64,000 nt of DNA from positions 1 through 64,000 of the IMG/VR virus record IMGVR_UViG_3300031760_004705; one strand, given 5' to 3'. The notes beneath the pieces are model-generated. The model had not been told where the DNA came from. It was given only the letters and a program-made list of their open reading frames with translations, and ran no database searches. The DNA is from a virus (taxonomy: Duplodnaviria > Caudoviricetes). This document shows, piece by piece, positions 5,991 through 64,000 of the stretch (within the stretch, counting starts at the first letter, position 1; each line of letters opens with the position of its first letter). The position numbers and the translations under genes are program-made.

Positions 5991-6037
5991 AAGGAGAGCG
6001 GAGGTAGGAGTAATCTTATCTCCGCTATTTTATTATG
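5991..6037 (+). promoter_or_regulatory. 13-bp GNRA-capped hairpin between SD (AAGGAG 5991-96) and ATG 6035
   Basis: agcggaggtagga-gtaa-tcttatctccgct (5997-6026), then 8 nt, then ATG. Confidence 0.55.
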
Positions 6038-7042
6038 AATTGAGATAATCTAATTCCCATTATTATTTTTATTTTATATGCACTTGTTGGATGATTCTGT
6101 TATTGACTTGGTTGTGAAACAGTTCAACCTATTGAAGATATTAATGATAGAATTTTAGAGAGAAGAAAAGAATTAGAAGATGATATTTTCTCTTTAAAAA
6201 ATGAAGAAAAAGAACGTATAGAACGTAATAATATTTTAGATGAAGAGTTTGATCAAATTGGTAAAAAATTAGCTGAAAAAAGAAATGAAAAAATTTTACT
6301 TGATAATGAATTACTTTTAAAACAGCAACAAAAAGAAGAAGTTCAAGATTTTATAGATCAGTCTGAAAAATTAGCTAATGAAAAAGCTGATGCTATATAT
6401 CAAAAAAGACTTTTAGAATTAGAAAAAGACTTTAAAGATTCAAAAGAATATTATACAACAACATTAAACACTTTAACAGAATATATTCAAACTGAAAAAG
6501 AACAATTGGAATCTTTAAAAGCAACACGTGCGGCCGCAATTGAAGCAGCTAAAAGAGAAAAAGAAATTCAAGAAGATAAAGATGATTATTGTCTTGTTCT
6601 TCCAATAGAATATAGGAATGATATAAAAATCTTACGAAGTGTAAGTGAACAAATTGCAAAACCTAGATCTATTTTAATGGCTATCTGACAAGCATATTAT
6701 GCACCTTTAGCTAAAAAGAAATTCCCACAAATATTAAATAAGACCGATGTATGCGGCATCTATAAAATTACAAATCAAGAAACCGGTGAATGTTATATAG
6801 GTCAAGCTGTTGACATACGCCGCAGATGAATGGATCACTGTAAAGCTGGATTGGGTATTGATACGCCGCAAGGTAATCAATTATATGCCGCAATGCTAGA
6901 ATATGGATTAGATTCTTTTTCCTTTGAACTTCTCTTGGAATGTGAATCTAGTCAATTAAATGAAAAAGAAAAATATTTTATTGAATTGTATAATTCAGAT
7001 GCTATTGGATATAATATGAATAAAGGAGTAAATAATGGTTAA
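6035..7042 (+). CDS. Membrane-anchored coiled-coil protein with C-terminal GIY-YIG nuclease domain (335 aa, 5 TGA=Trp)
   Basis: Track ORFs 6506 and 6830 are in frame with ATG 6035; N-terminal hydrophobic LIPIIIFILYALVG, long E/K coiled coil, CGIYKITNQETGECYIGQAVDIRRR[TGA]MDH. Confidence 0.8.
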
Positions 7043-7703
7043 TTTTCAAACAATAGAAGTTGCGGGATTTGCACCTGCAATTATGGGTATGCGTCATCCA
7101 TTAAAGTCTTATGATAAGGCAGATAGTTCTTATGATGAAGAAGGCATCCTTCATATTGGACAAAATGATTATGATTTAGCTAGACGACTTTGTCAAGCAG
7201 GAGGTCCTGAACATGCAAAGTTTCTTCGACAGATTGAAGTATGAGTAAATATTACAGCACCAAGATTTTGGTGGGTAGAAGAAGCAACTTATAAAATCGG
7301 TACAACTGAAAATTCTCAGTCTACAATGCATACTCTAATGCGCGATGGGGTTAAACCAGAAGATATTTATTTTATTTTTGGTGAAGATGAAATTGCTAAT
7401 AATGCTATGCTTACTTATATTCAAGCAATTAATGATCTTATTGACCTTTATAAACAGCTAGAACCTGGTGATATTAAAGAACAATATTTCGAGAAGATTA
7501 AAGCTATGCTTCCTGAAGGTTTTCTCCAGACTCGTATGGTAAGTCTTAATTATCAAGTTCTTCGTACTATGTATAATCAGCGCAAAGGTCATCGTCTCTC
7601 TGGATGGAATACTGATTTTGTAAATTGGGTTAAAACACTTCCAGTTTCTGAGTGGATTACAGGTGATTTTCCTGAGCCGGAAAATGTAGTTGACGGGCAA
7701 TAA
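7035..7703 (+). CDS. ThyX-fold-like phage protein (222 aa, 1 TGA=Trp)
   Basis: Track ORFs 7035 and 7326 join via TGA 7242-44: KFLRQIEV[W]VNITAPRFWWVEEATYKIGT..NSQSTMH, a recurrent phage family; lacks the RHRx7-8S ThyX motif. Confidence 0.6.
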
Positions 7704-7718
7704 AAAATATATTATAAT
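7690..7718 (+). promoter_or_regulatory. sigmaA promoter
   Basis: TTGACG-N17-TATAAT. Confidence 0.75.
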
Positions 7719-7759
7719 ATAATTGTAATAAAGAGACAAGAGAAAGAGAGAAATTTTAT

Positions 7760-8716
7760 ATGCGACAGAATAAGAATGTAGTTTATGTAGAGGGTTATGT
7801 TTATAATTATAGTCTCTTTGCAAACGTAGCAGGTCCGAATAGTAAGAATCCTGGTCAGGAGTATATCAACGGTACTGTTAACATTGCAACTGACGAGGAT
7901 GGTATTAATATCGTAAGTGTTCGTTATACTTATGTTATTCCGACTTGGAAGAGTGGTAAGGAGAATGAGACTTATACTATTCTTCAGGCTCTTCTAAATG
8001 GTGCTCCTACTTGGGAGAAGGATGGTAAGGACAAGGCGACTAAGCTTCGCATTCAGGGTGATGTAGAAGTTAATGATTTTATGGGTCGCGATGGTAACAT
8101 GGTTGAAACCAAGCAAGTTCGTGGTGGTTTCACTCATTATGCAAATGATGGATTCCGTGATAAGCGTAATAACTTTGAAACTGATATGCTTATTACAAGT
8201 GCAGTTCGTGTAGAAGTCGAAAATGGAAATGATTATATGAACCTTTCTGGTTATGTATTTAATTTCCGTAATGACTTTATTCCTGTAACTTATACTCTTA
8301 ATAACGAAGCTGGTATCAAGTATTTTGAGAGTCTTGATATTTCAATGAACACCCCTTATTATACTTATGTTTGGGGTAAGATTGTTTCTTCCACTCAGCG
8401 TATTGAGAAGCAGGTAGAGACTGCTTGGGGAGCTCCGCAAGTTGAATATACTACTCGTACTCTTCGTATGTGGGAAGTTGAAGGATGCTCACCTGAGTCT
8501 TACGAATTTGATGATGATTCTACAATTACTCTTGCAGAGTTTAAGCAGGGTCTTGCAAATCGTGAGCAGCAGAAGGCAGAAGCTAAAGCTCGTCAGGAAG
8601 CTCGTAATGCTTCTACCACCGGTAAATCTGGATTCCCCGCAACTACTGATGCGGATCTACCTTTCGGTGCTCCAACTTCTTCTTCTCCAACCGCAGCTTC
8701 TAACTTCAAGTTTTAG
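7760..8716 (+). CDS. Single-stranded DNA-binding protein-like (two OB-like halves)
   Basis: Beta-rich, flexible low-complexity tail ending in Phe, high-expression codon bias, lies next to a Sak4-like ATPase. Confidence 0.6.
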   Translation: MRQNKNVVYVEGYVYNYSLFANVAGPNSKNPGQEYINGTVNIATDEDGINIVSVRYTYVIPTWKSGKENETYTILQALLNGAPTWEKDGKDKATKLRIQGDVEVNDFMGRDGNMVETKQVRGGFTHYANDGFRDKRNNFETDMLITSAVRVEVENGNDYMNLSGYVFNFRNDFIPVTYTLNNEAGIKYFESLDISMNTPYYTYVWGKIVSSTQRIEKQVETAWGAPQVEYTTRTLRMWEVEGCSPESYEFDDDSTITLAEFKQGLANREQQKAEAKARQEARNASTTGKSGFPATTDADLPFGAPTSSSPTAASNFKF

Positions 8717-8729
8717 GAGGTAACCACAT

Positions 8730-9734
8730 ATGGCGATTGACATTTTTGCAATTAAACCACATGAGGTCAGTCGCGACCTCTGTGGTTACACTGTTCTTCT
8801 TTATGGTCAACCTAAGACCGGTAAAACTACAACCGCGGCTCAGTTCCCGCAAGCACTTCTTTGTGCATTTGAAACTGGTTATCTTGCTATTCCTGGTGTA
8901 ATGGCACAGCCAGTAAATAAATGGTCTGAGTTTAAGCAAATTCTAAAGCAGCTTGATTCAGATCAAGCACGTCAGCAATTTAAAAATGTAATTGTTGATA
9001 CTGTAGATATTGCATATGATCTTTGTGAGAAATATATTTGTAATCAAAATGGTGTTTCAACTGTAGGTGATCTTGCATATGGTAAAGGCTATGCTCTTGC
9101 AAAGAAAGAGTTTGATGAAGCTCTTCGCAAGATTCCTCAAATGGGATATGGTCTTGTAATGATTTCTCATGCGCAAGATAAGACTTTTAAGGATGAAAAT
9201 GGCGATGAATACCAGCAAATCGTTCCTACTCTTGCAAATCAGCCTCGTCTTGTAGTTGACCGTATGAGTGATATTATTGGTTATGCACATCCCTTCCAAG
9301 AGGAAGATGGAACTGTTCATACTACTCTATTTATGCGCGGTACCCCTCGGTTTGTAGCTGGTTCTCGATTCAAATATACACCTGATAGTATCGAGTTTAG
9401 TTATGATAACCTCGTTAATGCAATTGGTGATGCAATCGATCGGCAAGCAAAAGATTTCGGAGGACAATACGTAACCGATGCCCCTACTCAAGCTCATGTC
9501 GCAGAACCAGAACTTGATTTTGACGCGCTTATGGCTCAGTTCAATGAACTCGTATTTAAGATTCAAAATGCAACTGGTGGAGCATTTGGTACGACATGGG
9601 CACCTCGCATTGTAGCTATTACAGATAAGTATCTAGGTAAGGGCAAGAAAGTTTCTGAAATGTCTCGTGATCAGGTAGAACAACTTGTACTTATTGTAGA
9701 TGATCTTACGGAAGCTGTTGGTAATGGACTATAG
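8730..9734 (+). CDS. AAA_24/Sak4-like ATPase (ssDNA-annealing recombinase family)
   Basis: Walker A YGQPKTGKTT, Walker B VIVDTVD, ISHAQDK, typical context beside SSB. Confidence 0.8.
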   Translation: MAIDIFAIKPHEVSRDLCGYTVLLYGQPKTGKTTTAAQFPQALLCAFETGYLAIPGVMAQPVNKWSEFKQILKQLDSDQARQQFKNVIVDTVDIAYDLCEKYICNQNGVSTVGDLAYGKGYALAKKEFDEALRKIPQMGYGLVMISHAQDKTFKDENGDEYQQIVPTLANQPRLVVDRMSDIIGYAHPFQEEDGTVHTTLFMRGTPRFVAGSRFKYTPDSIEFSYDNLVNAIGDAIDRQAKDFGGQYVTDAPTQAHVAEPELDFDALMAQFNELVFKIQNATGGAFGTTWAPRIVAITDKYLGKGKKVSEMSRDQVEQLVLIVDDLTEAVGNGL

Positions 9735-9735
9735 A

Positions 9736-9942
9736 ATGAATGTTGGTAATGAGCTTGCTCAAATAAAAAATTGTAAAACTATAGATGAAATTAAAAAATT
9801 TCTTGAAGATCATAATTTAAAATTTGATCATTGGTATCTTGATACAAGCACTTCTGAGAATACAGATACAAAAGGATTATATGTAGTTGCTTATTATCAA
9901 GATATTGATGGAGTATTCATTCAAATTAGTTTTAATTTTTAG
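9736..9942 (+). CDS. Hypothetical protein (68 aa)
   Basis: ATG 9736 just after the upstream TAG; open frame. Confidence 0.55.
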   Translation: MNVGNELAQIKNCKTIDEIKKFLEDHNLKFDHWYLDTSTSENTDTKGLYVVAYYQDIDGVFIQISFNF

Positions 9943-10032
9943 GGGTAGACAACTAACGGGGAGTTAGGACCGCCTGCTAAGCGGATCGTACTCTGAAAAG
10001 AGTATTGGTGTCGGATACCAGTTGCCCCGCCA
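9942..10032 (+). tRNA. tRNA-Ser(GCT)-like, long variable arm, encoded CCA, non-canonical core
   Basis: GGGGTAG../TTGCCCC-G-CCA acceptor, G73, anticodon arm CCGC-CTGCTAA-GCGG, variable arm TACTCT-GAAA-AGAGTA, T arm TGGT-GTCGGAT-ACCA. Confidence 0.8.
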
Positions 10033-10041
10033 GATTATTTC

Positions 10042-10072
10042 AGCCGTTCTCTTCGGAGAGCGGCTTTTTTAT
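10042..10072 (+). terminator. Intrinsic terminator after the tRNA
   Basis: agccgttctc-ttcg-gagagcggct followed by a T tract. Confidence 0.9.
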
Positions 10073-10101
10073 TTGACAGAAACAAAAATATATGTTATAA
10101 T
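10073..10101 (+). promoter_or_regulatory. sigmaA promoter of the helicase/primase operon
   Basis: TTGACA-N17-TATAAT with TGn extension. Confidence 0.9.
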
Positions 10102-10133
10102 AAATTAATAAAAATATCTATGAAAGGAGTGTA

Positions 10134-10610
10134 ATGGCAAAATTAGCACCTGTTAAATGCCCTTATTGCGGCCAGTCCTTTCAGAGAGAAACTACAGAAT
10201 TTGTTCAGCTTGGCCGCAGATATGCTCATAAAGAATGTGTAGATATGGTAAAACAAATTCATGATTATATGCAACATAAATTGGGAGAAGGATATTCAAA
10301 AACAAAAGTTGAAACTCAAATTAAAAATTTTGTTTCAAAAGAAGGAATGAGTATTGATTCTATATATAAAACATTAATATATTGGTATGATGTTAAAAAA
10401 TCATCAACAGATCAAGCGAATGGTGGTATTGGTATTGTACCATATGTATATAGTGAATATTTAACTTATGCAAAAAATCAATATGAAAATTCTCAAATAA
10501 ATAAAAATAAACATATTGATGATTTTGTAGGAAAGACTCCAACAGAAATAACTGCTAAAGCAACTCCAATTAGAAAACCGCGACATGTCAAGTTTTATGA
10601 ACTTAGATAG
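10134..10610 (+). CDS. Zn-binding protein upstream of DnaB (possible helicase loader/initiator)
   Basis: CPYC...HKEC motif; position directly before the helicase (function is inference). Confidence 0.5.
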   Translation: MAKLAPVKCPYCGQSFQRETTEFVQLGRRYAHKECVDMVKQIHDYMQHKLGEGYSKTKVETQIKNFVSKEGMSIDSIYKTLIYWYDVKKSSTDQANGGIGIVPYVYSEYLTYAKNQYENSQINKNKHIDDFVGKTPTEITAKATPIRKPRHVKFYELR

Positions 10611-10621
10611 GAGGTATACGT

Positions 10622-12133
10622 TTGAATGAACTTAAATATGTAGATACTCCTGCTACAGTTCAAGTGCTTGGATGTATTATTAATAATCTTGATATATTGA
10701 ATGATTCAAGATATGAATTATTTGATGATGATTTTCCAAAAGGGTTTCATAGAACATTATTCTCTGCATTAAGTAATCTTGCGATGCTTGGTACAGAATA
10801 TATTACTCCGCAAACATTAGAAGATTATTTAAGTGATAAACCACAAAGTTATGCAGAGTATAAAGCAGGAGATGGTCCAAGGTTTGTTAAATCATGTATG
10901 GCAAATGCAGATTTTCAAAATTTTGATTATTATTATAATCGAATTAAAAAACTTACATTGATGCAAACATATTGGGATGTAGGATTAGATGTATCTTGGT
11001 TATATGATCCAGACGAATTAGATATATCCAAGAGAGAACAACAGAATAAATATTTTGATAGTTTATCTTTGACTCAAATTGCGGACGCCGTAGATAATCT
11101 AATGCTTAAAGTTAGAGCTGAATATGTAGATCATACTACAGATGAAAGCATGTCAGCTTCCGCAGGTATTGATGAACTATTTGATTCTCTTGGAAAAGAT
11201 CCAGATGTTGGACAACCAATGTATGGTAGTATGATTAATACAATTACACGAGGGATGAGACTTGGAAAATTTTATTTGCGGTCAGCCGCAACTGGTGTAG
11301 GTAAAACAAGAACAATGGTTGCAGATTTTTGTAATTGTGGATGTAATAAAATTTGGAAAGATGGAGAATGGGTAGACAATGGACTTGCATTTCCTTCGTT
11401 CTTTTTAAGTACAGAGCTCGAGCTCGATGAGATACAAACAATGATGGTAGCTTTTCTTGCAAATATTAATGAGGAAAATATTCTTAATAATACGCTTAGT
11501 TTTGAAGAAAGAGAAAGAATAAAAGTTGCAATAGAAATTATTAAAGAATCTCCATTGTATATTGAAGTTATACCAGATTTTAGTCTAAAAGATATTGAAA
11601 ATGCAATTAAAAGAAGTATTAGAATTTATTCTACTCAATACTTTTTTATTGATTATATTCATACTTCAATGAAAATTCTTGAAGAAATTACTAAAAGATC
11701 TGGTGGAGTGAGACTTCGAGAAGATAATATTCTTTTCTTATTAAGTGTAAAATTAAAAGAAATTGCAACAGAATATAATGTATTTATTTTAAGTAGTACG
11801 CAGTTAAATCAAGATTGGAAATCCGCAGATATTCCAGATCAAAATCTTCTTCGTGGTGCAAAGAGTATCGCAGATAAAATTGATACAGGTATGTTATTAT
11901 TAGATGTAACAGAAGAAGATAAAGAAAAATTACAAAGTGTAGTTGGTAACAACGGTATGGGGATGCCGAATGTAAAAATGTCTATTTACAAAAATCGTAG
12001 AGGTTCTTATAATAAATGTTATCTCTGGATGTATGCAGATAAATCTACATGTCGATTTGACGGAGCATTTTGTACAGATTATAATTATGAATTAATTCCA
12101 ATTACAGATACAAGAATCCATATGAGAGTGTAG
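10622..12133 (+). CDS. dnaB: Replicative DnaB-like helicase
   Basis: Walker A SAATGVGKT, STELE, FIDYIH, STQLN, LRGAKSIADKID, YKNRRG. Confidence 0.9.
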   Translation: MNELKYVDTPATVQVLGCIINNLDILNDSRYELFDDDFPKGFHRTLFSALSNLAMLGTEYITPQTLEDYLSDKPQSYAEYKAGDGPRFVKSCMANADFQNFDYYYNRIKKLTLMQTYWDVGLDVSWLYDPDELDISKREQQNKYFDSLSLTQIADAVDNLMLKVRAEYVDHTTDESMSASAGIDELFDSLGKDPDVGQPMYGSMINTITRGMRLGKFYLRSAATGVGKTRTMVADFCNCGCNKIWKDGEWVDNGLAFPSFFLSTELELDEIQTMMVAFLANINEENILNNTLSFEERERIKVAIEIIKESPLYIEVIPDFSLKDIENAIKRSIRIYSTQYFFIDYIHTSMKILEEITKRSGGVRLREDNILFLLSVKLKEIATEYNVFILSSTQLNQDWKSADIPDQNLLRGAKSIADKIDTGMLLLDVTEEDKEKLQSVVGNNGMGMPNVKMSIYKNRRGSYNKCYLWMYADKSTCRFDGAFCTDYNYELIPITDTRIHMRV

Positions 12134-12142
12134 GATAATAAT

Positions 12143-12403
12143 ATGATTGATACAAGATTATGTAAATCAGAAGAAGAATTACTATTAGCGATGCAATATG
12201 AAAAAGATAAAGTATTATTATCCCAACATCGATCTAAGTTATTTAAATTAAAAGCACAATTGCAAAATTTAGATTATTTAATTTTCTATGAACAATCAAC
12301 TATAAATAAGTTAGAAGAAGATATTAATAATTTTAAAAAACAATATGGCTATATGATAGTAAAAGAAGGAGGGGATGTATCATATCTTACGACAAAGAGT
12401 TAG
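12143..12403 (+). CDS. Hypothetical coiled-coil protein (86 aa)
   Basis: Open frame with SD, heptad pattern. Confidence 0.6.
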   Translation: MIDTRLCKSEEELLLAMQYEKDKVLLSQHRSKLFKLKAQLQNLDYLIFYEQSTINKLEEDINNFKKQYGYMIVKEGGDVSYLTTKS

Positions 12404-13455
12404 TTAAAGAACAAATTGAATTAGAAGATGTATATAATTTGTTAGACTTTTTTGATGCAGAACCTCAAATGTTTAATACTTATATTATCGCAAGAACAAT
12501 TTGTCATGGTGGCGATAGCCATAAACTTTATTATTATGAAAACACTCAATTATTTAAATGTTATAGTGATAGTTGTGGTAGTTTTGATATATTTGAATTA
12601 GTTCAAAAAGTAGAAGATATTAAAGATTTAAATGCCGCAGTATTTTATATAGTAAATTTCTTTAATCTTCAATCTAAAATTGATGAAGTAGATGAAGATT
12701 TTGATTTAGATACATCTAAATATATTGCACAAGTTACTAAATTAGCGCAATTAGATGGATATAAAAAAGATAAAGTTATATTACCAGAATTTCCTATGGA
12801 TATGTTAGATCATTATCCGCAACCAGAAATATTAAATTGGACTAGAGAAGGTATATCTCACGAAGTGTGTAATTATATGGGAATTAAATATGATCCTGTA
12901 AATGGAAATATTTTAATTCCTCATTATGATGAAGATAGTAGATTAGTTGGAATTAGACAACGTACATTAGTCCAAGAGCAAGAAATATATGGTAAATATA
13001 GACCCGCGCGAATACAAGGTAAACTTTGTAACCATCCTCTAGCATTTAATCTTTATGGTTTTAATCAAGCACGGCCGCAGATTAAACAAGCTCAATTAGC
13101 GATTATAGTTGAAGGTGAAAAATCAGTTTTGCAATATATGTCATACTTTGGAACAAAGTCAAATATATGTGTAGCTGTATGCGGCAGTTCAATATCTCAA
13201 TATCAATTTCAACTTCTCTTGGATGCAGGGGTTAAAGAAATTGTATTAGGATTTGATAAAGACTTTCAAGAAATGCGTGGAAAAGAATATGACGATGTTG
13301 TTAAAAAAATTGACAACATTTATAATAAATATAAAAATAGAATTACAATTAGTGTATTATTTGATAAATGGAATTTACTAGGATATAAAAATTCACCACT
13401 AGATTGCGGAAAGGAGGCTTTCTTATATCTATGGAGGAACAGAGTTATGTGTTAA
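12379..13455 (+). CDS. dnaG: DNA primase (DnaG-like); start probably non-canonical ATC 12379/ATA 12382 rather than TTG 12439
   Basis: Zn motif ICHG..LYYY..FKCYSDSC, IPHYD..LVGIRQR, TOPRIM IVEGEKS and LGFDKD; frame open back to TAA 12334 with SD GGAGG at 12368-72. Confidence 0.88.
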   Translation: MISYDKELVKEQIELEDVYNLLDFFDAEPQMFNTYIIARTICHGGDSHKLYYYENTQLFKCYSDSCGSFDIFELVQKVEDIKDLNAAVFYIVNFFNLQSKIDEVDEDFDLDTSKYIAQVTKLAQLDGYKKDKVILPEFPMDMLDHYPQPEILNWTREGISHEVCNYMGIKYDPVNGNILIPHYDEDSRLVGIRQRTLVQEQEIYGKYRPARIQGKLCNHPLAFNLYGFNQARPQIKQAQLAIIVEGEKSVLQYMSYFGTKSNICVAVCGSSISQYQFQLLLDAGVKEIVLGFDKDFQEMRGKEYDDVVKKIDNIYNKYKNRITISVLFDKWNLLGYKNSPLDCGKEAFLYLWRNRVMC

Positions 13456-13652
13456 AATATAGAGAGAAACATCCTCGTTGTAGGTATTGTAAATTTAAAA
13501 GGCATGTCTGTCCGCCCGCAGGAAATTGTTGCGGATATAATAAATGTATTCTTAAAGATAGACATTTAACAGAATGAGATTTTATATTTTGGATATGGCA
13601 AGGATGTTTTTGCAAATGGTTTAAACCAAGGGAGGATGACATTGATATATAA
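13449..13652 (+). CDS. Small Cys-rich protein (67 aa, 1 TGA=Trp)
   Basis: GTG start after SD; HPRCRYCKF..CPPAGNCCGYNKC..TE[W]DFIFWIWQGCFCKWF; fills the primase-RecJ gap. Confidence 0.6.
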
Positions 13653-15432
13653 ATTATTTAATGAACCTACTCAAGGAACAATGCGGCAGATTTTATATAA
13701 CCGTGGTATAAAAACTAAAGAAGATCAAGATAAATGGATTAATGCCAATTATTGAACAGATGTAAATTCTCCTTTTGCTTTTGGTGAAGATACTGTTATG
13801 AAAGCTGTTGAATTTATGCGTACTTATGTTATGCTTCATATGCCTATTACAGTAGTTGTAGATGCAGATGCAGATGGTTTTACAAGTGCCGCAATCTTTT
13901 TAAATTATATGTATGATTTATATTCTTATAATCAGAGTAAAGCAGAAACTCTTACTAAATTACATTATATTTTACATAGTGGAAAACAGCATGGACTAGA
14001 AGATGTTATAGATCAACTTTTAGAAGATGATTCAAGTCTTGTCGTAATTCCAGATGCAGGAACCAATGATGTTGAACAAATGCAAAAATTAATTGATGCT
14101 GGAAAAACCATCCTTTGTATGGATCATCACGAATCGGATAATTGGCTTAAACATGACAGATGTGTAATTATTAATAATCAAATTTGTGATTATCCAAATA
14201 AAGATTTATCTGGAGCTGGTGTAACTTGGCGTATTTGTCGAGCATATGATATGGTTATGGGATTAACTGATCTTGAGGGATGGCCTGGTGCTTTACAATA
14301 CGCTGACCTCGCGGCACTTGGTAATCTTTCTGACATGATGGATTATCGTAGTGTAGAAACTAAAGCTATTATTGATATGGGTTTACAAAATATTAAAAAT
14401 CCTTTCTTCTATTATATGTGCGAGAAAAATAAATTTAGTATTGATAAAATGGGCGGAATTAATTATATGTCAATGGCATTTTATGTCACTCCATTTATTA
14501 ATGCAATTGTTCGTTCTGGCACAATGGAGGAAAAAGATTTAGTTTTTAAATCAATGTTAAAATTTTATGCTTTTGATAAGATTGAGAGTGGTAAACGTGG
14601 TCACAAAGGAGAATTGGTACCAAGAGTTGAAGAAGCAGTTAGAATTGCAGCTAACGTCAAAGCTAGACAAACAAAGCTCCAAGATGCTGCAATGGATTTG
14701 CTCGAGCAACGAATTCAATCTGACAGATTGACAGAAAATGGTATTATCATCTGTTGCTGCGAACCCGGAGAAGTGGAAAAGAATCTCGCCGGACTTGTCG
14801 CCAATAAGATTCAAGCGAAATATCAGCACCCATGTCTCGTTCTCACAAGGTCAAAAGGGAAAGATGATAAAGAGTATTATTATAGAGGAAGTGCCAGAAA
14901 TTATTCTATGTCAGAAATAGAAGATATGCGGCAACTCTGTGAAAATACTGGCGATGTAGAATATGCGCAAGGTCACAGTTCTGCGTTTGGTATCTCTATT
15001 CCTGAATCTAAATTAAAAGATTTTATTAAAAAGACAAATGCAATCTATAGTGAAACCGCACAAGAGCCTGTATATTGGGTTGACTTTGAATGGTTTAATA
15101 AAGACATTGATAGTCAAAAAATCTTAACGATTGCTCAAGGAAAAGAATTTTGGGGTCAAGGTTTACCAGAACCTTATATTGCTATACGTGATATTCCATT
15201 AGAATCTGTTCAGCTTTTATCTCCAGATAAGCATCCTACACTCAAGATACACTTATCTAATGGAGTAGATATTATGAAATTTAAATCTTCATATGAAGAA
15301 TATGAGCAGTTTATTAAACCAAATATGTATTTAACTGCGGTTTGTAGATGTGCTAAAAATGAATGAGCTGGGCGTGTAACTGCACAACTTATTATTGAAG
15401 ATTTTTATATTAATGAGAAGTGAGTGTTTTAG
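13642..15432 (+). CDS. recJ: RecJ-like ssDNA exonuclease (DHH/DHHA1), 3 TGA=Trp
   Basis: DADADG, IPDAGT, MDHHES, DLSGAG, GNLSDMM, GSAR, QGHSSAFG; C-terminus KNE[W]AGRVTAQLIIEDF; SD GGAGG 6 nt before TTG 13642. Confidence 0.9.
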
Positions 15433-51900: not shown

Positions 51901-52863
51901 AATAGTTGATTGATTTATATTTAAATAATTTTTTATTTCTCTGAAATGAAAAATTCCAAATACATCATAAAAATATTCATAGTTTCCTAATTGATTTTTA
52001 ATTGTATCTAAAACAGTACAAACCGTATCTCCTGCGGCTCCTACTATTTCAGAAGTTGGAACAAAATCATCATAGACATATCCTACTCGATCTCCACGAG
52101 AATATTTATTTAATATTTCTCCTTCAACCGGTTCTGTATAAATTTGTCTAGCACCATTTTCATCTGATGGTCCAAAATATATATCTGTATCAGCATTTCA
52201 TTGCATAACTCTACGAATACGTAAAGGCACATCTTGAATAATAATATTATTTAAATCTTCTCCACCTCAATGGGTTAATAATTCTAAAATTATATTATAA
52301 TATAAAACAGTTTGATTTACGATTTCGCCATTTGTTAATTGAGTAGTTACTTTATCAAACTGAACTGTAATAGGTAAAGTACCACCTACATCACCGTTTA
52401 ATAAGCACATTTTGTCTTTTAAATTAATAGTTAAATTAACTGCAGATGAAGTCGCAGAATTTAAACTAAAAGAATTAATATAAAATACACCTTGCGGAAA
52501 TCAAAAAATAGGATACTTTGGATAGTATTCTGTTTCATTTTTTATACCGATTTCAATAAAAACTTTTTTATTTAAAGCGAAATCCATTTCCATTGAGTCA
52601 ATATCATATTCTTCTTTACTTACTGAGCAAGAAAGGGAGCAAGTGCGCCGCACGCTACTGCTCCCATCTTTTGAAATTGATCCAGAAGCAATTATTCCAT
52701 GAATTTCTTTTAAAGGATTTTCTTGCCAGTCTAATAAAATTATATTTACATATTGACGTTGATTAATAAAATCATCAATGAAACTTAAAATAGATCGTTT
52801 TTGTTGTTCTTCATTTAAATTATACACATAAGGCTCTTCAAGATATGGATACTTCTTTCTCAT
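48913..52863 (-). CDS. Large tail (hub-like) protein (1316 aa, many TGA=Trp)
   Basis: Track ORFs 52501, 50554 and 48913 share one frame; GSISKDGSSSVRRTCSL, [W]FPQGVF, KDKMCLLNG, PVYYLEPNNRV. Confidence 0.75.
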
Positions 52864-52884
52864 TTTAACTCCTATCTATTCTTA

Positions 52885-55800
52885 TTATGTATAATATTTC
52901 TTAATTAAACTACCTTTATAGTTAATCATTCCATTAACTGGTACTTTAGCAAGCATAGTAGTTTTGTCTTCATCTTCAAATTCAACATCGTATCAACCAC
53001 CATCTATATAATAAAGTTTATAACTCATTATACGATTTTCATCTATGACGCCGTATACAGTATTATATTGAGGCTCTTTAATTTCTTCTTCTTCAAAAAG
53101 AGTTTCTTCCATAGTACTTCAATCATCATATATAACTCTGAAATCATCTGGTTTTCATACAACATATCTTCAATCAATATCTTGAGATAAATCAGAACTT
53201 AAAAAAACTCTAACTAAAGCATCTGTTTCTTCATTAGTTTCTAATTGATACCAATAAAAAGATCCGCCAACTTTATCTTTGTTTCCAGGAGTTATTTCAT
53301 AAACAGATGGATCTAAAATATATTCTCACTCATCTAAATAAGGCTGTCTGTCTGCAGTAGTTTTAAACATGCGGCGACCAAGAATCGCACAGTTACTCAT
53401 AGGATAATCAGATCCTAATCGTAAAGTTCCAGTTCTACCAACTACAATTTTTTGAAGTCCTAGTCCAGAATTTATTTGTTTAATACTAAGTACAGTATAT
53501 GGAGTTAAATCAAAATCACTTGCTTTTCAATATTCTAATTCTTGCGTTTCACCGACATAAGTTGATGCAGTTTCATTAACATGCTGATAATAATATTTAT
53601 GATAAATTAATTCATTAATATTAGAATTTGGTTGCCATCAACCAGAAACTTGACCAACTATATCAGTACCTACTTCATATTTTGAAGGATCTTTTAAATC
53701 TTTATATGTAACATCTCATTGAACTAAATAATCAATTGTTGCTATTTGATCATCAAATAAATAAACATCTAAGACATTAATATCAGAAGGAATTTGATAA
53801 TATCCATGCTCATTTACAAAAACAGTTCTTTTTAAAGAAGCGGCTCCGCTATCATAAGGTGATACTAATTCAAGTACTAGTTTATAACCTAGTCCATAAT
53901 TATAAATTTCTTTAAGATTTGTTCTTTGTTCATCTATTAAAGAATATACTGCAGAAGCATAAGCTGAAACAATATCTTCTTTTGAAGATCCTTCAGACGA
54001 TGTATAATCTGAAGATTCTACAGATGGTGACGATGTATAATATCATTTATTTTCTTTTTCAATTTCTATTTTTGTTAAAATATTGCCATTTACTATTTCA
54101 GTTTCTCAAGCACTAAGATATTCTGTAAGAATATCTATTGCAGTCATAGCACTTTCAGTTCCATCTTCATTTACATAATAAAATGAATTACTTGATTTTA
54201 ATAAATATTCTCAAGAAATGCTATCTGTTACTACCGATGTTCCTTGTGAATTTCTTTCAATAATTTTTAATTTTATTTGTTCATCTGCATTAGATAATGA
54301 ATCTAAATTATATCATTGTGGAACAGATCCTTTAATTCTATCATCATGAAATTGAATTTTAACACTATTTAAAGAAACAGATTCAGGAATGATTTGATAT
54401 TTAGAACCCAATCCTTCATAATTCATTTCAATCTTTTTTATAATTTGATCTCTAATAGAGTATCCATTAGTTGTTCCTTGAACTCCATACTGTTGACCAA
54501 TTTGATAATTTGTAACAGCAATTTGTTGAGTAATACCACTTATTAAATTTTGATTATAATCATTTTGAATTGGATATAATCCAAGAGTATCAAGAACTTT
54601 TAATGAGTATCCATCTTCAACTTCATAAACTGTAGCAGAAAAATTTCAAGTGCGGCGACCTAATTGAGTATTTGGAGTTAAAGATATTCCATCAAACATG
54701 ACTACCATATTACCTTCAGTCATAGATCGCCAAAGTTTAGGCTCGCCATTATTTAATCATTTAAGAACTTTTTCTCTAAAGACTCTTTCTCACCATCAAT
54801 TTTCATATGGATATAAATCATGCAGAGTCATTGAACTACCATTTTTACCAATTTTAGTATTTCTAACTCGCTCTTTGGTAGGTGTATCTGGTTTATCTAT
54901 CCAATCATGATATGTTCCATAACTTCCAGATTCGTTTTCAAGAACTGTGTCATTACGAATTAAATATTTTCCATTCATATTATTATCATATGCAATTAAA
55001 TCTGCTTGATATTCTTTAGCCATTTCATTTAAAAATGTTCTATTAAAATCACTTTCCGCAGTAATTAAACCATTAATTGTAAATTGTTTATAATCTAATC
55101 GTGCATTTTCTGCAAATTTAGGATATTTTCCTCCTAAAGTATCAATTTTAACTCTGGTTTTTACCGGAGTCATAGAATTAACTTGAGCATTATAACGAAT
55201 AGCCAATTGTCTATCTTTATCTCTAACTAAAATATCATGAAAATTAGGATATACCTCTTGACTTTCAACTAATCTTGTTCAAGCATTTTTAAGAGTTTGA
55301 TATTGAACGGTATAAACATATCTTATTAAACTACCCACAGTATTGTCTGTAATTTCACAATATACATTTTGTGGATCGTTTGAATTTTCTTCTTCACCTT
55401 CTTTTGGATTTCCTCCTAAGAAGCCTTTGCAATAAATTAATTCAGAAGTTTGAAATCTGTCTAAACTACTTTTTCTTCGAACATATAAATAGCCGGGAGG
55501 AAGATCTCCGCATTCAATAGTAAAGTTAATAATTCCATCTTCTTCTGTAACAATTTCATTTGTCTCTAATCCATGATCTGGAATAGTTAATGTTTTAAAA
55601 TTCCAAATTGGAAGAAATTCTACTGCATAATCTATAAGAGAAAATTCATATGTTTTAGTAAAAGTATAATTATTATTTGTTGTAAAAATTATTTGAATAA
55701 AATAATTAGCATTTACTGGATATGTAGTATTATTTGAAACATCTAATAAATAGGTAAAACTATCTTTTTCAGCTAAAAGCGCTGTATATTGAGTTTCACT

Positions 55801-56541
55801 TTGAAATAATATTTGCCCTTTGCTATTTGAAGTTCTTATATAATAACTTTTAAGATATTCTCCATGATTGGTTGTGGTATTAGAGCTTCCATCTGTAAAA
55901 GTTAAAAAACCTGTTAAATTAATTGTACCAGGCAAATATTGTGGAATAGACTGCTCTTCGTTAGCAGAATCATTTACATCTCCACTATTCTCTGCTTGAC
56001 TTCAAGCAGTCGCATCACTAAAGTTTTTAAGGAAGCAATCTACTCTTGGAATGGCTTTTAATAAACAAATACTAGACCATTCTGAAAAATATACTCTGTT
56101 TCTAGTAAGATAATCTGCACTATTTATAACTGATTGATTTGAAGAACTATCAAAACGTAATTGTACTTTATAATAATAATCTATTGTAAAGACTTTATTA
56201 TCAGTATTGTTTTGATTTTTTAATAGCATTCTTGGAATAGTTAAGTGTCATAAATTATCTTTATCACAATGTAATATATCTTCTATTTCTCTAAAAGGTA
56301 ATATTCAAACACTATTAAGTAAAACACCTGCGGGAATAGCTTGTTTTAATCCTTTATTTGATCCTTCAAAAGCATTTTGATTAGTTTTTTGATTTACTAA
56401 AGAAACATGTAAAAAATTTATCATATTAGCCGTATTATAAGGAGAAATAGAGAACTCTATTGTTGGATCTCCATCATACGGAAAAGCTGGCATGAAGGTA
56501 TCAATTAAAGGAGGATAAAGAGTATTTAATACTGTTGCCAT
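52885..56541 (-). CDS. Large tail/baseplate protein (1218 aa, many TGA=Trp)
   Basis: Track ORFs 56305, 56002, 55279 and 54796 share one frame; LYPPLIDTFMPAF, KIDTLGGKYP, FREKVLK[W]LNNGEPKL[W]RSMTEGN. Confidence 0.75.
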
Positions 56542-57103: not shown

Positions 57104-60100
57104 TTAGTCTGTTGAAGTGGTTGATGAAGGTATAGAAACAGTAACTTTATTGTTTGTAACGCTAAATTCTTTACTGTATGCATCAACTGTATGAGTATGA
57201 CCATGAGCTGCATAAGTTGTACTACCAATTTTATTTTTAATTCAAGTGCTTCAATCGGTCTTAGTATCGCCAGTAATCAATTTTTTAACTCAATCGCCTC
57301 ATCCAGTCGTAGTGTCGCCTTTAACCGCGAGTGCTACTTCTCCTGCAAATCCATTATCACCTCAAGAAATATCACTTTTACTTATTGTAAAAGTTTGATC
57401 TGATATTGCGCTAAAAACTGGTCGTTCATTTGTTAATGTTATGTTTGTTCCGTGAAGAGTAAATGTACCGTTATATTTACTAATTGAAAAAGAATTAGTA
57501 GTACCAGAAGCTGTATTTGTTACAGCAGTTCCATCTCCATGAAGTGTAGCACCCTTTATTGCGCCATCAGCAGTAATATCGCCACCAATACCGCCCGCTT
57601 TAGTTACAGTAATATTACCTTTATTTGTAGCAATATCACCCTCTTTAGTAGTAATATTACCCTTATTCGTAGTAATATTACCTTTTTTAGTAACAATATT
57701 ACCTTCTTTAGTAGTAATATTACCTTTTCTAACTAATATCTGTTTACCTACAGTTAAAGTACCGCCAAAAATAACATTCTTGTTAACAGACAAACCAACA
57801 CTTGGATTTTTAAGTAATCCTCCTTGAACACTTAAACCATTTGAATTATATTGAGGGGCTGTTACATAAAAATTTTCTCTGTATTGTCTTGTATCTCCAG
57901 CAGTATAATGTTCTGGATAAATACCAATTCTTGCAGTCGCCGTACGCACTTCAAATACTGGATAAGAACTTGCTGCTTTTTTAGGATTATTATTTTTAAA
58001 ATCTGCGTTATTACTTAAAGCTGATGCTCAGCCATTATTAGAAGAATTTAAAATTAATTCTGCAGATGTTCCTGAATTTCCAGTAATGGAAGGGCCAGCT
58101 TTTAATAAAATTTGTGGATTAGATTCTGTATAAAGATTTCCTTCTCCAAGACTAGAAACATTAACTTCAAAATTATCTTGCATTTTTAATAAAATATTAG
58201 ATTCTGCATTTAATCCAATATTAGACTGTGTCATAGACAAGCCATTATAATTATTAGTATCTATAAGAAAACCAGCAATTAATGATTGACCTTCAAGTTT
58301 ATAACCCTCATCTGTAAAAAATCCAAAACGACGATTAACTTTTTCATCTTCATTAATTGTTTGAAGTTGTACATCAAAATCTGTAAATGTTTTTGCTTGT
58401 GAAATAATAGATATTCCACCACCAGTAGAATTAAATAATTGTATACCATTAGAATCGCCTATTAATTCAATTATATCATCTTCGTATCCAATACTAGTAT
58501 TATTGTCATCAAAAAGTTCTGTACGATTTGTAACTATTTTTCCATAATACTTACCCGCATAAAAAGAATAATCTTTTTGAGATATAAAATTTTCTGTCGA
58601 TACATATTTTACAGATTCTATTGGTTCAATACTACCTGTTATTTGAACATATTGTCTTTTTTCTGAATCTTTATATATATATCCAGGATTTAATTCTGAA
58701 TATACTAAATCATTTTTATTTATATAATAAAAAACACCATTCATACCACGAACAACATTATATTCTTTTAATGAATCATCATATTTTTTCATTGATGAAC
58801 CAGTTCAAAAATATAATGATGAGGTATTTAAATTATTAGCTACAAATGTATCAATAAGTTCGTTATTATCAACTCTAACAACACTTCTATATTTAGCATC
58901 AGGGTTATTGTTACTATCTTTTTCAATTGCCGTTATCTTTATAAATTTCTCCTTAATATTATCATAAAAATATTGGTCTATTGCAATTGATTTTGTCGTA
59001 ATAACATAACTTTCTTCTCCAGTATCGCTTATTTCTAAATCATATGTTGGATCGTTTTCTGCAAGATATATACTATTATTTATTTTATAATATTTTATAT
59101 TTTGATTAGACACTAAACAATAGTAATTAGTATTATTATTATTATTATTTATTTGATAATAAAATGGTATCGTAGTAGCTTTTTTATAATCTGTGCTATT
59201 AATTTTTACATATAAATCATTTTTATCTCAAGAATCTTTTTCAGCATAAACAGTTGTAGAATTTCCATTTTCATCAGTACCTACTGTAATAGATATATAT
59301 ATTTTTGGATTTGATTGCATATTAACAGTTTTATTATTAGTAGTATAAATAACAATATTTTGTCCTGCTTTTTGCTCTAATCCTATGTTAGTTTTAAAAT
59401 TACCAGCAGACATTAAAGATGATTCATAATTATCGTCTTTAAAAAGATTAAAATGAGCTTTCTTTACTTGTATTTGTAGTCCATCTTTATTTTCAGAGTA
59501 ATCATTATCTGCTCCTAATAATAAATATGTATCAGTTTTTTTAGAATTTTTAGGATCTTCTGCTGAACTAAAAGTTGGATTAGATGCTAATTTAATATTT
59601 TTTCCATATATACCAATAGGTCGAGTATATTCATTATTATTACCTAAACCACCTGTTATAAATAAAGTAGAATCTCCTCCACTATTTGGATTTATTCCAT
59701 CATTAGAAACGAATAACTGCCCAATAGTATTAGATCCTATTTTTATTTTTAATCCTGTATGAGTTGGAAAATCCATTGGAATAGGAGGTGTTACATTTAA
59801 ATTTTTTGCAAAGTCGTCGAAAGCTCTAAAAGTATTTACTGAAAATTGAGTCGTATAAACTGAATCTTCATTTTCACCAATATTTACAATACTACTAACA
59901 GTATTGGCAACAAATTCTCCTTTACCATTAATACCAGCTAAATAAGTTCTAGAACCTTCTTCATAAATCGTTCTAGTTGTAATTTCTCCATTTGAATTAC
60001 GACTAGATTGAGTTCAATTAGTACCGTTATGTCTAAAAATTGTAAATAAAGTAGGAGTCTTAGGATCTAGTTGAATTTCTAATGAATCTTCTGGACGTAA

Positions 60101-63100
60101 ATATATACCTAAATCATCCGGAGCTATATCTGTTTCTAATAATTGCCGACCTTTAATAGAAATATAGGGATCTGTTCCAGAATGCAATAAAATTCCAGAA
60201 TCTTTATAATCTATATCTTTTTCATGATGACCGCTATAAGGATCTGAACCAATTTGAGTTATTTTTCCTGTTCTAATTTCTGGAACATAATCATTAGAAT
60301 AACGAGGTCCAATCTCACCACTCTGAGTATAATAAAGACTTCGATGCCCTAATCTTCATCCACCTATTTTACTTACTCCACCTGGTCTTAATTCTATTCT
60401 ACCTTCATTGTAATCATCATTTTTTAATCCTATATAATTACCTTTTTCATCTGTTTGAATAGAATTGCCATTAGGTAATCCAAAATCTGCATTGCCAGTT
60501 TTAGCATCTAAGAAAATAGATTGGATACCATAAGAATATCCAAATAAACCTATTTGATTTTCTTCAGAAGAACTGCCAGTATAAGTATTAGTTTTACCCA
60601 TTAAAATACCGGTAAAACGATTATTAGAATCTTTTTCTCCCGCACCTACTTGCGGAGCAAGTATTGCACCACGTTCATCATCAATACTAATACTATTACC
60701 ATCTCATGCATTCACAGAATCTAAACCAAAAGTATTTAATGTCATATTAATAGGAGCATATACAGTTGCATATAATTTTATTTCTTCATCTGAATCAGGA
60801 ATATAAATTTTTGCTTCTATTCGATTATTTGTTACAGATCCATCATATACATCATTAGGTAAAACATAGATCATAGCTTCATTTGTATCATCATTTAAAA
60901 TTTGAATATTAGCATCAATAATCGCTTCTTCATATGGAGAATAAACAGATTTAAAATAAGCTTCAGGAGTTAATGCAACATTTGCTTTTGTATAAATTGT
61001 CTTGTAAAAATAATCTTGTTCTCCTATTTCAGATTTTTCAAGAGCTACATATCCATATTCATTATCTTGTTCATTAACAATAACATATTTATATAAATTA
61101 TATAGTTCATTCTCTTTTTCTGACTCTGTAGTTAATTGATAACGCGATTCTTCTCAAATTGGTAAAGGATAATATTTTTCAATAAGTTGAGATTCACCTT
61201 GTTCATTTTCTACTTGTGTAGTAATTTTATAAAAATAATTTTTATAAACAGCTTGAGAATCTCATCATTCATTCACATTTTTAGAAAATCATCAACATTC
61301 GTTTAAAGGTTTATCTTCACGTTCTTTATCTCTAATATCATTTTCTGTAAGGTCCGTTCTATGAGGAAGTTCTTCTTCAATAAATTTATTAATAGCTTCT
61401 TTTTGTAAAATCCGTAATCTTTCTTCTTTGAATTTAGCTAATAATAATTCATTTTGAGATTGAACCTTTGCTATATAATTGTCATATAGTCCAGTTCCTC
61501 CAGTTATTACTTTATTACCTTCTTCATCAAGTATTTCATTACCTTGTTCATCAACAGCTAAAGTACAATATAACTTTAAATTTTCATCTTTTTCTTTTTC
61601 ATATACTTGTCTACGCTGCTCTTCTTCTTTTTCTAATGTACTTTTTCTTTGAGATATTAATTTAGAAAAAGTATTCTTAGTATTTTTTTCTAATCCAAGA
61701 GTAAAACTAGGTTCTAATTCAAAACATTCTTGAATAATATTAGAATTATTTGATTTATTTACATCTAATCCTCCACGAGCTTCCCAATAGATGATAGAAT
61801 TTTCAGGAAGGTTCGTTAATTTTAACCCTTGATTATGATTAAAAATAGGATTGCGGCCGTCCGCATTATAAACAACATCGTTTAAATATGTTTTTTTATC
61901 AATTGCAATACGTTGCATTGGTAATAATTCATTGACTAAAGTTGAATTATTTTCATATTCAATAATAGGTAAACTAAAGAAACTGTAGTAAGTTTGTTCT
62001 GATTCTTCTTCTGTAATAGCATCTTTATTTTTTATTAAAATTTCTGATCTAATGTTCTGAAGTAATAAACTTCTAGTATCATTATGATAATTAGGATTTC
62101 ATTTAATTTCATTAGCAGTTATTTCAAAATATTTGCCCAGTTCATTTCCTCTTGAGTTTCCTGCTAAAATTCATCTTGGGTATCCCGAGGCAAAATTTAC
62201 TGAATCAATTTCTTCACCTTTTTGATAAACATGAGCTTTTAATACAGAATTTTTATTTTCAGCATTTGTAACAATTGTTTGTTTATTTTTTAGTACATCA
62301 ATATCACCATCTGAATCTGCAACATTAAACATTGCTTGAGTTTCAGTTGTATTTTCATCTATTGGAACATTTTTTTGTACATATAATGTTAGTGGTTGTT
62401 CATGAAGAACAAAATATTTATCATTTCCATTATAACTAATTTTAGAAATCATATCTGTACCATTAGTACCATTACCACCTATTTTATTAAAATAAAAATT
62501 AGTATCAGCATAAAGATCTATATCGTTAAAATTAGCATGGCAAGTAATTTGATTATTTTGCGCATCAGGATTATATAATTTTTCAATATCAAAAGTGCAA
62601 TCTGGTCCTTTTAATAATTGCTCTTGTTGTGTTGCGGGATTTAATACTAGTCCATCTGGAGGAATAATTAAAGAATTTTCTAAATTAAAAATTCATTCAA
62701 AATTAATATTTGAACTAGAAACAGAAAAAGATAATCCGGTTGGGCCTAAAATTTTTGCATGTAAAGGTTTAATTTCTAAAGGATCTTTTGTTTTAGTAAG
62801 AGTTGGAGCATTTCCATATTCATCATATTGAAATACCTGATCTCCATTTTCAATTATAATTCTATAATTTGAAGAAGCTCCCATTTTTAAATTTGTAATT
62901 TCAATAGAATCTGTACCGATATCATAATAATTAGCAGTAGTTTCTGAAATAAAGATTTTTTGAACTGTACACTCAACAGTAAAACCTGAGCTAGATAAAG
63001 AAACAGGGTATTGAATTCTTGTTGCTCTATTAGGAATCTTTGTTTCAACTAATTCATTTGTAGTTCTATCCAAATATCACATTTTAATTTTAGAAACAAT

Positions 63101-64000
63101 ATTATCTTTTAAAATATTAGAAGTGTTTTTTGAAAAAGCATCTTCTAAAAATAAAACAGATGAATTAGCACTATCTGCTATGCTTCATTGATATTTATAT
63201 AATGGAGTTTCTATACTATCATTATATCCATATTCTTGATAATTGTCTAAGTTTTCATTATCTTCAACAGAAAGAGAGTTCTCTTGAATTAAACAACTAA
63301 TTGTAGGGCTTCCTTCTGAAAAAGTAAATTCAGTGCCTAAATCAGATTCTAATTTTATTTTTGTTGAAACTGCATTATTATAAACAGTAAATGTTGTTGA
63401 TAAAGTAACTGTTTCATCAGAAGTTTTATATAAAGCTATACATTTATATAAATTTTTGTATGCTCAATTTTCATTACCGGTAGTTTGAAAAATAAATCTA
63501 CTAGTATTTTTTAATCGTTTCCATCCTATTCCCGCATAATGATAATAATCTGGATGACTAGCATTAATTACTTGTGAACTTTGTTTTAATCAAATATATT
63601 CAACATTTGCATTAGAAGTTAATTCTTCTATTTGATTTCTATAAACGTGAGCATTAAATGTAACTTTATCATCTGCAGATAAACTAGATAAAACTCCAGT
63701 ACTATTCTCTGCACATTCAACCTTTAAAGAAAAATTGTTAGATTCCGCATCAGATTCTTTCAATAAAAATAATTGAATGTTTTGACAAAATATATCATAT
63801 CCAGTTCCTTCATCTTTAGGAGCGTCACTAGGTGGCCATAATTGTTCTTGTTCTGCATCTTGATTAAATCCATCTTTAAAAAATAAAATATTTTTTATAT
63901 ATTTAAAACGAGAAAATTCTAATTTTTGAGATGGAATTATATATTGACTATTTCAATTCTTAAATGCTAAAGGATTACCCATCATTGAATCTGAAGTTAA
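57104..64000 (-). CDS. Giant tail protein (central fibre/spike-like), 5' end outside the window, more than 2290 aa with many TGA=Trp
   Basis: Nine track ORFs from 57362 to 63073 share one frame ending at TAA 57104; IGLFGYSYGIQSIFLDAKTGNADFG..GRIELRPGG; C-terminal AHGHTH. Confidence 0.8.
57610..57740 (-). repeat. About 6 x 21-bp repeat encoding (K/E)GNI(T/V)T(K/N) heptads
   Basis: KGNITTKEGNIVTKKGNITTNKGNITTKEGDIATNKGNITV. Confidence 0.85.

Follow-up and report, generated by a model that had tools for sequence, protein, structure and literature searches.

TGA codons predicted to encode tryptophan in a large SPbeta/phAss-1-like phage, and a two-armed candidate suppressor tRNA on its sibling contigs

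Gene content and coding coverage

The phage described here is represented by an 88,423-bp virus contig (IMG/VR record IMGVR_UViG_3300031760_004705), with a GC content of 32.5%, of which bases 1-64000 (about two thirds) form the window. The plus strand (59-25121) carries a block of replication and nucleotide-metabolism genes recognized by Pfam. From 25168 the minus strand encodes an endolysin, tail-fibre-like genes and giant tail proteins, followed beyond the window by head genes, the portal and the large terminase (TerL), which is the last gene and is cut by the contig end. CheckV placed the completeness of the contig at 59% and no terminal repeat was present; the contig is incomplete. An initial annotation, made from the sequence alone, had proposed that this phage reads TGA as tryptophan (Trp) from position 6035 onward. 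Here we report how TGA behaves in the gene models and in alignments, and describe a candidate decoder, a long tRNA(UCA) with a second anticodon-like arm, found on sibling contigs.

Coding coverage was assessed as a greedy non-overlapping gene cover of positions 6035-64000. Under the standard code (code 11) the cover was 0.689, with 89 open reading frames (ORFs) of median length 89 amino acids (aa). With TGA as a sense codon it rose to 0.975, with 55 genes and a median of 182 aa, whereas reading TAG as sense gave a cover of only 0.766. ORF fragments were said to join in frame across TGA, and this agrees with the 183 in-frame TGA codons in the code-4 models that start inside the window, 20 on the plus-strand block and 163 on the minus-strand block. 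It had also been stated that none of the reconstructed genes ends in TGA. Of the 76 gene models on the contig, 51 stop at TAA and 25 at TAG; the lack of TGA stops holds by construction under code 4 and is supported by the tight packing of the genes. TAA and TAG are the only stops in this phage, and such genomes need table 4 for annotation.

In-frame TGA codons might also reflect decay of a defective phage or assembly errors, for which only the fragmented look under code 11 speaks. The same TGA positions were present in independent assemblies of other samples and in relatives down to approximately 60% identity, frames were broken by TGA alone and never by TAA or TAG, and the genes retained full-length homology. 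We regard decay or misassembly as hardly credible.

Amino acid assigned to TGA

TGA was masked as X before alignment. Pfam upheld the gene names given by the initial annotation (GIY-YIG, RecJ, dUTPase, RuvC and GH25), and its examples of TGA at Trp positions held for these genes. In the GH25 domain, X12 and X156 fall on W in Protein Data Bank (PDB) entry 4kru, and X156 also on W in 2ww5; X41 of the dUTPase corresponds to W in the PDB chains of Bacillus subtilis YncF and YosS. At the RuvC sites 16 and 104, the RecJ sites 577 and 596, and the GIY-YIG sites 218 and 265, TGG was found in relatives whose genes do not use TGA as a sense codon.

For the window genes, the comparison set consisted of four complete records from relatives without sense TGA, plus part of phage phAss-1. 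Across 90 window TGA sites, 81 of 201 aligned cells were TGG (40%, against a background of 1.1%), followed by Tyr (24), Phe (14), Leu (12) and Cys (4). The window's own TGG codons gave much the same picture in this test, with 116 TGG cells in 250 (46%), 42 Tyr and 23 Phe. In the portal region, 41 IMG/VR relatives with 48-100% portal identity were compared; columns with TGA in the contig held 139 TGG, 97 TGA and 99 other residues, and columns with TGG held 331 TGG and 47 TGA. TGA and TGG are freely interchangeable in the TGA-recoded relatives.

TGA columns thus act like Trp columns in both relatives and solved structures, as the initial annotation had predicted. Gly, Cys and Ser were not enriched at them; therefore a Gly reading (code 25), a selenocysteine (Sec) or Cys reading and a Ser reading are excluded by this comparison, Gly in particular being rare. 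From these alignments, TGA is predicted to be read as Trp in this phage.

Distribution of TGA among genes

The plus-strand replication block contains 20 TGA and 95 TGG codons, versus 204 TGA and 53 TGG in the minus-strand lysis, tail and head block (Fisher p=3.5e-30). TGA and TGG together account for 1.46% of early-block codons and 1.27% of late-block codons, values that are normal for Trp. Genes in 59-22929 other than the GIY-YIG gene hold just 6 TGA and 88 TGG. The early block has exceptions: the GIY-YIG nuclease, in which all five Trp codons are TGA, the RecJ-like exonuclease (three of ten), and the five distal genes at 23167-25121 (nine of sixteen). TGA use tracks the gene programme: the replication genes write Trp as TGG, and the lysin, tail fibres, tape-measure region and many head genes write it as TGA. 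Recoding is densest within the window in the endolysin, with 15 in-frame TGA per 518 codons. The 2684-aa gene that crosses the window edge holds 28 in-frame TGA, 24 of them inside the window (Table 1).

Several late genes are free of TGA. One lies in the window (39756-41543); the others, at contig positions 77020-79785 and 82627-84194, include the genes presumed to encode the major capsid protein, the tube and adjacent virion components. Their lack of TGA fits avoidance of an inefficiently decoded codon in virion genes that are presumably expressed at high copy.

Table 1. Genes and gene groups of the window, with in-frame TGA and TGG codons where counted
Feature	Position	Strand	Basis
GyrB-like topoisomerase II subunit	59-2023	+	Pfam
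GyrA/ParC-like topoisomerase II subunit	2016-4115	+	Pfam
ATP-dependent DNA ligase	4177-5304	+	Pfam
Early genes without TGA (21 TGG, 0 TGA)	59-5304	+	codon counts
GIY-YIG nuclease, first recoded plus-strand gene (5 TGA, 0 TGG)	6035-7042	+	Pfam, codon counts
ThyX-like gene (1 TGA)	starts segment 7035-13455	+	Pfam, codon counts
YorF-like and AAA_24 replisome genes, TGA-free	within 7035-13455	+	Pfam
DnaB-like helicase, TGA-free	10622-12133	+	Pfam
Toprim primase, TGA-free	12439-13455	+	Pfam
RecJ-like exonuclease (3 TGA, 7 TGG)	13636-15432	+	Pfam, codon counts
DnaE-type DNA polymerase III alpha (0 TGA, 19 TGG)	15498-19340	+	Pfam, codon counts
Guanylate kinase (1 TGA), NrdD (1 TGA), NrdG (0 TGA)	within 15498-22929	+	Pfam, codon counts
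Five distal genes of the plus-strand block (together 9 TGA, 7 TGG)	23167-25121	+	codon counts
dUTPase	24148-24627	+	Pfam
RuvC-like resolvase	24627-25121	+	Pfam
Endolysin: GH25 muramidase, Amidase_5, endolysin-like domains, PG_binding_1 repeats	25168-26724	-	Pfam
Tail-fibre-like gene run, Trp mostly TGA	27305-39181	-	codon counts
Tail-fibre-like genes with 7, 7 and 6 TGA	32918-33490, 33506-34159, 34168-34788	-	codon counts
595-aa late-block gene, TGA-free	39756-41543	-	codon counts
Tail and baseplate-region genes, heavy TGA use	41568-56541	-	codon counts
Genes with 9, 11, 16 and 20 TGA	44067-45137, 45498-47711, 48913-52863, 52885-56541	-	codon counts
3' 2298 codons of the 2684-aa gene, which reaches contig position 65158	57104-64000	-	gene models

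Phage affiliation and gene calls

Precomputed Pfam matches in the head and tail genes included YonG_N, YonD_N, YonB, YomW and YomU_Tube, all of SPbeta type. The portal matched phrog_2739 and was 39.5% identical to that of phAss-1 and 30% identical to that of Enterococcus phage EF1; further portal relatives were found in the Enterococcus EF1/VRE9 phages and in SPbeta-like, Bacillus, Brevibacillus and Lactococcus phages. These portal relatives, of which the known ones infect walled Bacillota (Enterococcus, Bacillus, Lactococcus and similar hosts), together with homologous terminase and Yon/Yom-type genes, point to a large SPbeta/phAss-1-like siphovirus of Bacillota, presumably of Gram-positive bacteria from gut or rumen. 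A crAss-like phage had been guessed from the two opposed blocks and giant ORFs, and was excluded by the DnaE-type polymerase, the SPbeta-type head genes and the portal relatives. The TGA-free first 6 kb, with topoisomerase II subunits and ligase, belong to the same phage and not to a host.

Within the portal clade, one member (L050, IMGVR_UViG_3300010974_000090; compared with L024-L046) has 19 TAG codons in frame. About 17 members are TGA-recoded, and many others use neither codon within their genes. Three codes, standard, TAG-recoded and TGA-recoded, are thus found in one portal clade.

No PHROG match was obtained for most tail genes, including the large genes at 34807-37455 and 37544-39181, and searches of IMG/VR with the 737-aa tail protein and of the phage collection with the 595-aa protein (39756-41543) found no homolog. 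A code-4 ORF at 5666-5962 on the minus strand, with 2 TGA, is probably spurious; it overlaps 5721-5969 on the plus strand, where a MarR-type helix-turn-helix gene is called on a sibling contig. Sibling contig L004 is collinear with window positions 1-8168 at 99.07% identity, GIY-YIG gene included. The impression that L004 lacked this gene was wrong, as code 11 had merely fragmented its gene calls.

A candidate decoder tRNA on sibling contigs

No tRNA was found in a search of the window and the 88-kb contig. The decoder was therefore sought by walking along contigs that encode identical proteins. ENA contig ERZ27256903 k141_346764 (88,573 bp) and contigs of JGI 3300032038 are 98.8% identical to the phage contig over its last 12.8 kb, and the ENA contig reaches 36 kb past the contig end. 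Beyond TerL, past a GC-rich stretch, lie small AT-rich genes and then an array of at least 13 tRNAs, which starts with a 95-nucleotide (nt) tRNA(UCA) (L010:115-209) and is identical in both samples (L010 and L011). Homologous long tRNA(UCA) genes are carried by the recoded relatives G035 (83% complete) and G036, and several tRNA arrays hold an ordinary tRNA-Trp(CCA) beside the long tRNA(UCA). No tryptophanyl- or tyrosyl-tRNA synthetase (TrpRS/TyrRS, PF00579) and no release factor (PF00472) was found in G000, G035 or G036.

Two other leads were rejected. A tRNA-like element at L008:2593-2710 (minus strand) was considered as a suppressor; it scores 36.6 bits with the Rfam tRNA model, above the gathering score, and has a 58-nt insert in its anticodon arm, but ARAGORN did not call it with or without the intron option and its T loop is non-canonical. 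Closing the circle by joining L005, the sibling contig upstream of gyrB, to the contig end also failed; no overlap was found, and L005 ends in an ORF other than TerL.

The surroundings of the array held further features. Directly past TerL, L008:1-14500 (on the ENA contig) is a stretch of approximately 14 kb whose GC content of 40-54% contrasts with the 32% of the phage. Clear long ORFs are absent from the stretch, which contains repeated motifs resembling 'AAAAGTTAGCCTTGGTTAACTT' and includes one ORF with a T5orf172 domain and paralogous proteins of about 118 aa at 2167-2520 and 4223-4579 (both minus strand); a Pfam search of ORFs from this GC-rich region gave no match. In the array, two tRNA-like genes not called by ARAGORN lie at L010:2720-2799 and 2956-3035; the Rfam tmRNA model matches one of them through its tRNA-like ends (63.5 bits), and the tRNA model matches the other (36 bits). 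A SpoU-family RNA 2'-O-methyltransferase gene a few kilobases from the array (L010:9346-9915) may modify tRNA. Adjoining the tRNA(UCA), L010:466-589 gave a weak match to YrlA, a Y RNA-like model (36 bits, below the gathering score), and L005:13578-17441 encodes a TROVE/Ro60-like protein and an RNA ligase. Together, these three may form an RNA repair or quality-control module.

The extra arm and its isoleucine parallel

The body of the 95-nt tRNA(UCA) is Trp-like, with A1-U72, G73 and the anticodon arm CUGGU-CUUCAAA-ACCAG. Its variable region forms a hairpin, GGGG-CGUCCAAAA-CCCC, the loop of which copies the anticodon loop of tRNA-Trp (U-CCA-A). We searched IMG/VR with a pattern limited to three fixed elements (UCA loop, long spacer and T loop), which did not require UCCAA. 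This search returned 25 distinct long tRNA(UCA) genes of 93-100 nt, all of which have UCCAA in the extra loop (UCCAAA in 21). Many of them have CUCCAAA as their complete extra loop, with the G-C and U-A closing pairs of tRNA-Trp. The short loci that carry long tRNA(UCA) genes show a weak TGA-recoding signal, with a median cover of 0.54 under code 11 versus 0.83 with TGA as sense.

In an alignment of 26 distinct phage tRNA(UCA) sequences, 96.3% of cells were paired across five helices. In the extra arm, each of the five pairs shows changes on both sides, and none of 500 shuffles reached the observed covariation. The acceptor stem (7 bp) and the T stem (5 bp) also showed covariation, and the general tRNA model with this 7/5 arrangement fitted better than the Sec model, tRNA-Sec having an 8/5 fold.

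These features bear on possible non-Trp readings of TGA, namely Gly (code 25), Cys or Sec, and also Ser, Leu or Tyr, the last three being raised because the tRNA(UCA) has a long, class II-like variable arm. ARAGORN labels the 95-nt tRNA 'SeC', G73 and a long variable arm are also identity features for seryl-tRNA synthetase (SerRS) (PMC9976931), and the Leu-charged nev-tRNAs of nematodes offer a precedent (PMC3333845). Set against these points are the TGA columns, which show Trp and then Tyr, Phe and Leu in the proportions of true TGG, with Gly, Cys and Ser rare, and the better fit of the 7/5 model together with A1-U72 and the Trp-type anticodon arm. For Sec in particular, some 180 sites in 64 kb are unlike selenoproteins. 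A non-Trp reading is therefore very improbable, and Trp remains the predicted meaning of TGA.

A parallel was found in tRNA-Ile. The usual Ile anticodon is GAU. Long tRNA-Ile(UAU) genes, 90-101 nt in length, form a hairpin in the variable arm, and GAU lies in the loop of this hairpin in 23 of 24 sequences, or about 9 of 10 distinct arm types; examples are L121:752-842, L122:2503-2593, L235 (c2578-2667) and about 20 IMG/VR loci (L285-L345). The same loci hold TAG suppressors of normal length. There are thus two cases of a changed wobble base, Trp CCA to UCA, which reads the UGA stop, and Ile GAU to UAU, which reads AUA.

From the sequences, we infer that the extra arm might make the altered tRNA acceptable to the host TrpRS or to some other factor that reads the Trp anticodon loop; alternatively, it could be a second arm able to occupy the anticodon position. 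Extended to both cases, the idea would be that in two-armed tRNAs of large phages the wobble base is changed to U while a covarying variable-arm hairpin displays the original anticodon loop, acting as an identity decoy built into the tRNA or as a second anticodon arm that can be swapped in, so that host TrpRS or isoleucyl-tRNA synthetase (IleRS) charges the altered tRNA. We hold this general reading only tentatively, as a possibility somewhat short of likely.

Several points weigh against the arm as a decoy. E. coli TrpRS reportedly need not discriminate C34 from U34 (PMC12135181). In E. coli extract, 13 phage tRNA(UCA) are reported to insert Trp, and short phage tRNA(UCA) are charged with Trp (PMC12636597). 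Charging may thus work without a decoy. In addition, the variable-arm loop is not where TrpRS expects the anticodon, and how it would reach the anticodon-binding domain is not obvious. We found no account of a tRNA(UCA) with an arm showing the Trp anticodon loop in the full-text library, although one outside it is possible.

Genetic code of the host

The initial annotation had argued that the peptidoglycan lysin speaks against a wall-less, code-4 host. We considered that the host itself uses code 4 (TGA as Trp, no release factor 2 (RF2), as in Mycoplasmatales), with the phage merely following and the early/late split being a historical or compositional accident. A contig without tRNA, TrpRS or release factor would suit such a host. 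Four metagenome-assembled genomes (G001-G004) hold binned relatives of the phage; RF2 was present in bins G002-G004 and had no match over the cut-off in G001, an absence that also suits a code-4 host. G001 contains a 104.7-kb contig that is syntenic with the phage and has a 93% identical portal.

However, in a 411-kb sample of G001, 34 of 344 long ORFs end in TGA with short extensions behind, Trp is written TGG, and code 11 gives a cover of 0.87; G001 therefore uses the standard code. Its use of TGA stops resembles that of related genomes with RF2, which was found in 26 of 30 G001 relatives. The first 95 kb of G001 had given 0 of 60 ORFs ending in TGA, and for a time suggested a bin without UGA termination (RF2 lost, TGA unassigned). 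The larger sample led us to reject this; the early count was a sampling fluke, and RF2 is most likely missing through incompleteness of the bin.

Other evidence also counts against a code-4 host. A 32%-GC phage on such a host should use TGA everywhere, yet the block split is extreme and the replication block nearly avoids TGA. Sibling contigs bring their own tRNA(UCA), the lysin both cuts and binds peptidoglycan, for which a wall-less host has no need, and the clade includes standard-code and TAG-recoded as well as TGA-recoded members. We consider a code-4 host unlikely. A walled, standard-code bacterium is supported but not proven as the host, because of the lysin with its GH25 and PG_binding_1 domains, the TGA-poor replication genes, the sibling tRNA(UCA), the Bacillota relatives and the TGA stops of G001. 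The earlier argument from the lysin stands to the same degree.

Discussion

We think it probable that this is a Trp-recoded phage of a standard-code host, decoded by a phage tRNA(UCA) in a code switch of the type described by Borges et al. In such a host the early genes would be translated at once. The phage tRNA(UCA) would then accumulate, charged with Trp by the host TrpRS, and would out-compete RF2, at which point the TGA-laden late and lysis genes would become translatable.

Some observations sit uneasily with this scheme. The decoder tRNA lies off the window's own contig, to which it is linked by 98.8% identity over the 12.8-kb overlap with the sibling. The partition of TGA is not clean: TGA codons also occur in the GIY-YIG, RecJ, dUTPase and RuvC genes of the plus-strand block, and a few in several small genes close to the tRNA array. 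Co-binning is weak host evidence, although it is consistent with the lysin directed at peptidoglycan, the early genes poor in TGA and the tRNA borne by the phage.

Recoding itself is a known phage strategy, to which this phage adds a well-documented code-4 case. A group hitherto known for TAG recoding gains a TGA-recoded case, and one clade switches among three codes. The part worth following is the suppressor tRNA of the sibling contigs, which bears on the open question of how phage suppressor tRNAs are charged when the phage brings no synthetase. If the reading of the extra arm is true, a phage could rewrite the code without a synthetase of its own, host TrpRS or IleRS charging the tRNA with the altered anticodon. 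The arm may also offer a natural design principle for engineered suppressor tRNAs that host synthetases still accept.

Recoding of TGA to Trp has already been described for phages of standard-code Firmicutes and Bacteroidetes, for example in the Jade and Agate clades (Borges et al., 10.1101/2021.08.26.457843). Like those phages, this one has low GC, TGA that aligns to Trp, coding density that rises with TGA and not with TAG as sense, recoding concentrated in structural and lysis genes, early genes compatible with the standard code, and a clade that mixes codes (11, 15 and 4); a candidate suppressor tRNA(UCA) is present on its sibling contigs and in recoded relatives. Unlike them, it belongs by gene content to a group of large SPbeta/phAss-1-like siphoviruses, no 'code change module' (TrpRS and RF1) was found, and the candidate suppressor has an extra arm showing the Trp anticodon loop.

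The closest named relative, by portal, is phAss-1 (OQ749652; Babkin et al. 2023, PMC10607447), which shares a large genome with a tRNA array, recoded virion and some DNA-metabolism genes, no dedicated aminoacyl-tRNA synthetase and a predicted Bacillota host. In phAss-1, however, TAG is recoded to Gln and the tRNA(CUA) is of ordinary length, whereas here TGA is predicted to encode Trp.

As a rule, cellular tRNA-Trp(UCA) has the length of an ordinary class I tRNA. The tRNA(UCA) of the sibling contigs shares the UCA anticodon, Trp identity and G73 with the Mycoplasmatales tRNA-Trp(UCA) and with the TrpRS:tRNA(UCA) pairs of phages AP1 and HF2 (PMC12636597), but it is 95 nt long with a second anticodon-like arm, and no phage TrpRS accompanies it in the genomes searched. 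Like nev-tRNAs (PMC3333845) and allo-tRNAs (PMC5389517), it combines a long variable arm with an anticodon outside the usual class II set; those tRNAs, however, use the arm for leucyl-tRNA synthetase or SerRS and reassign codons to Leu or Ser. A hairpin that copies a cognate anticodon loop as a handle for protein recognition is known from the E. coli thrS operator and from yeast mRNAs for aminoacyl-tRNA synthetases (PMC9976931). Unlike those, the mimic described here sits inside the decoding tRNA itself, in the position of the variable arm, and matches the amino acid that is predicted to be inserted.

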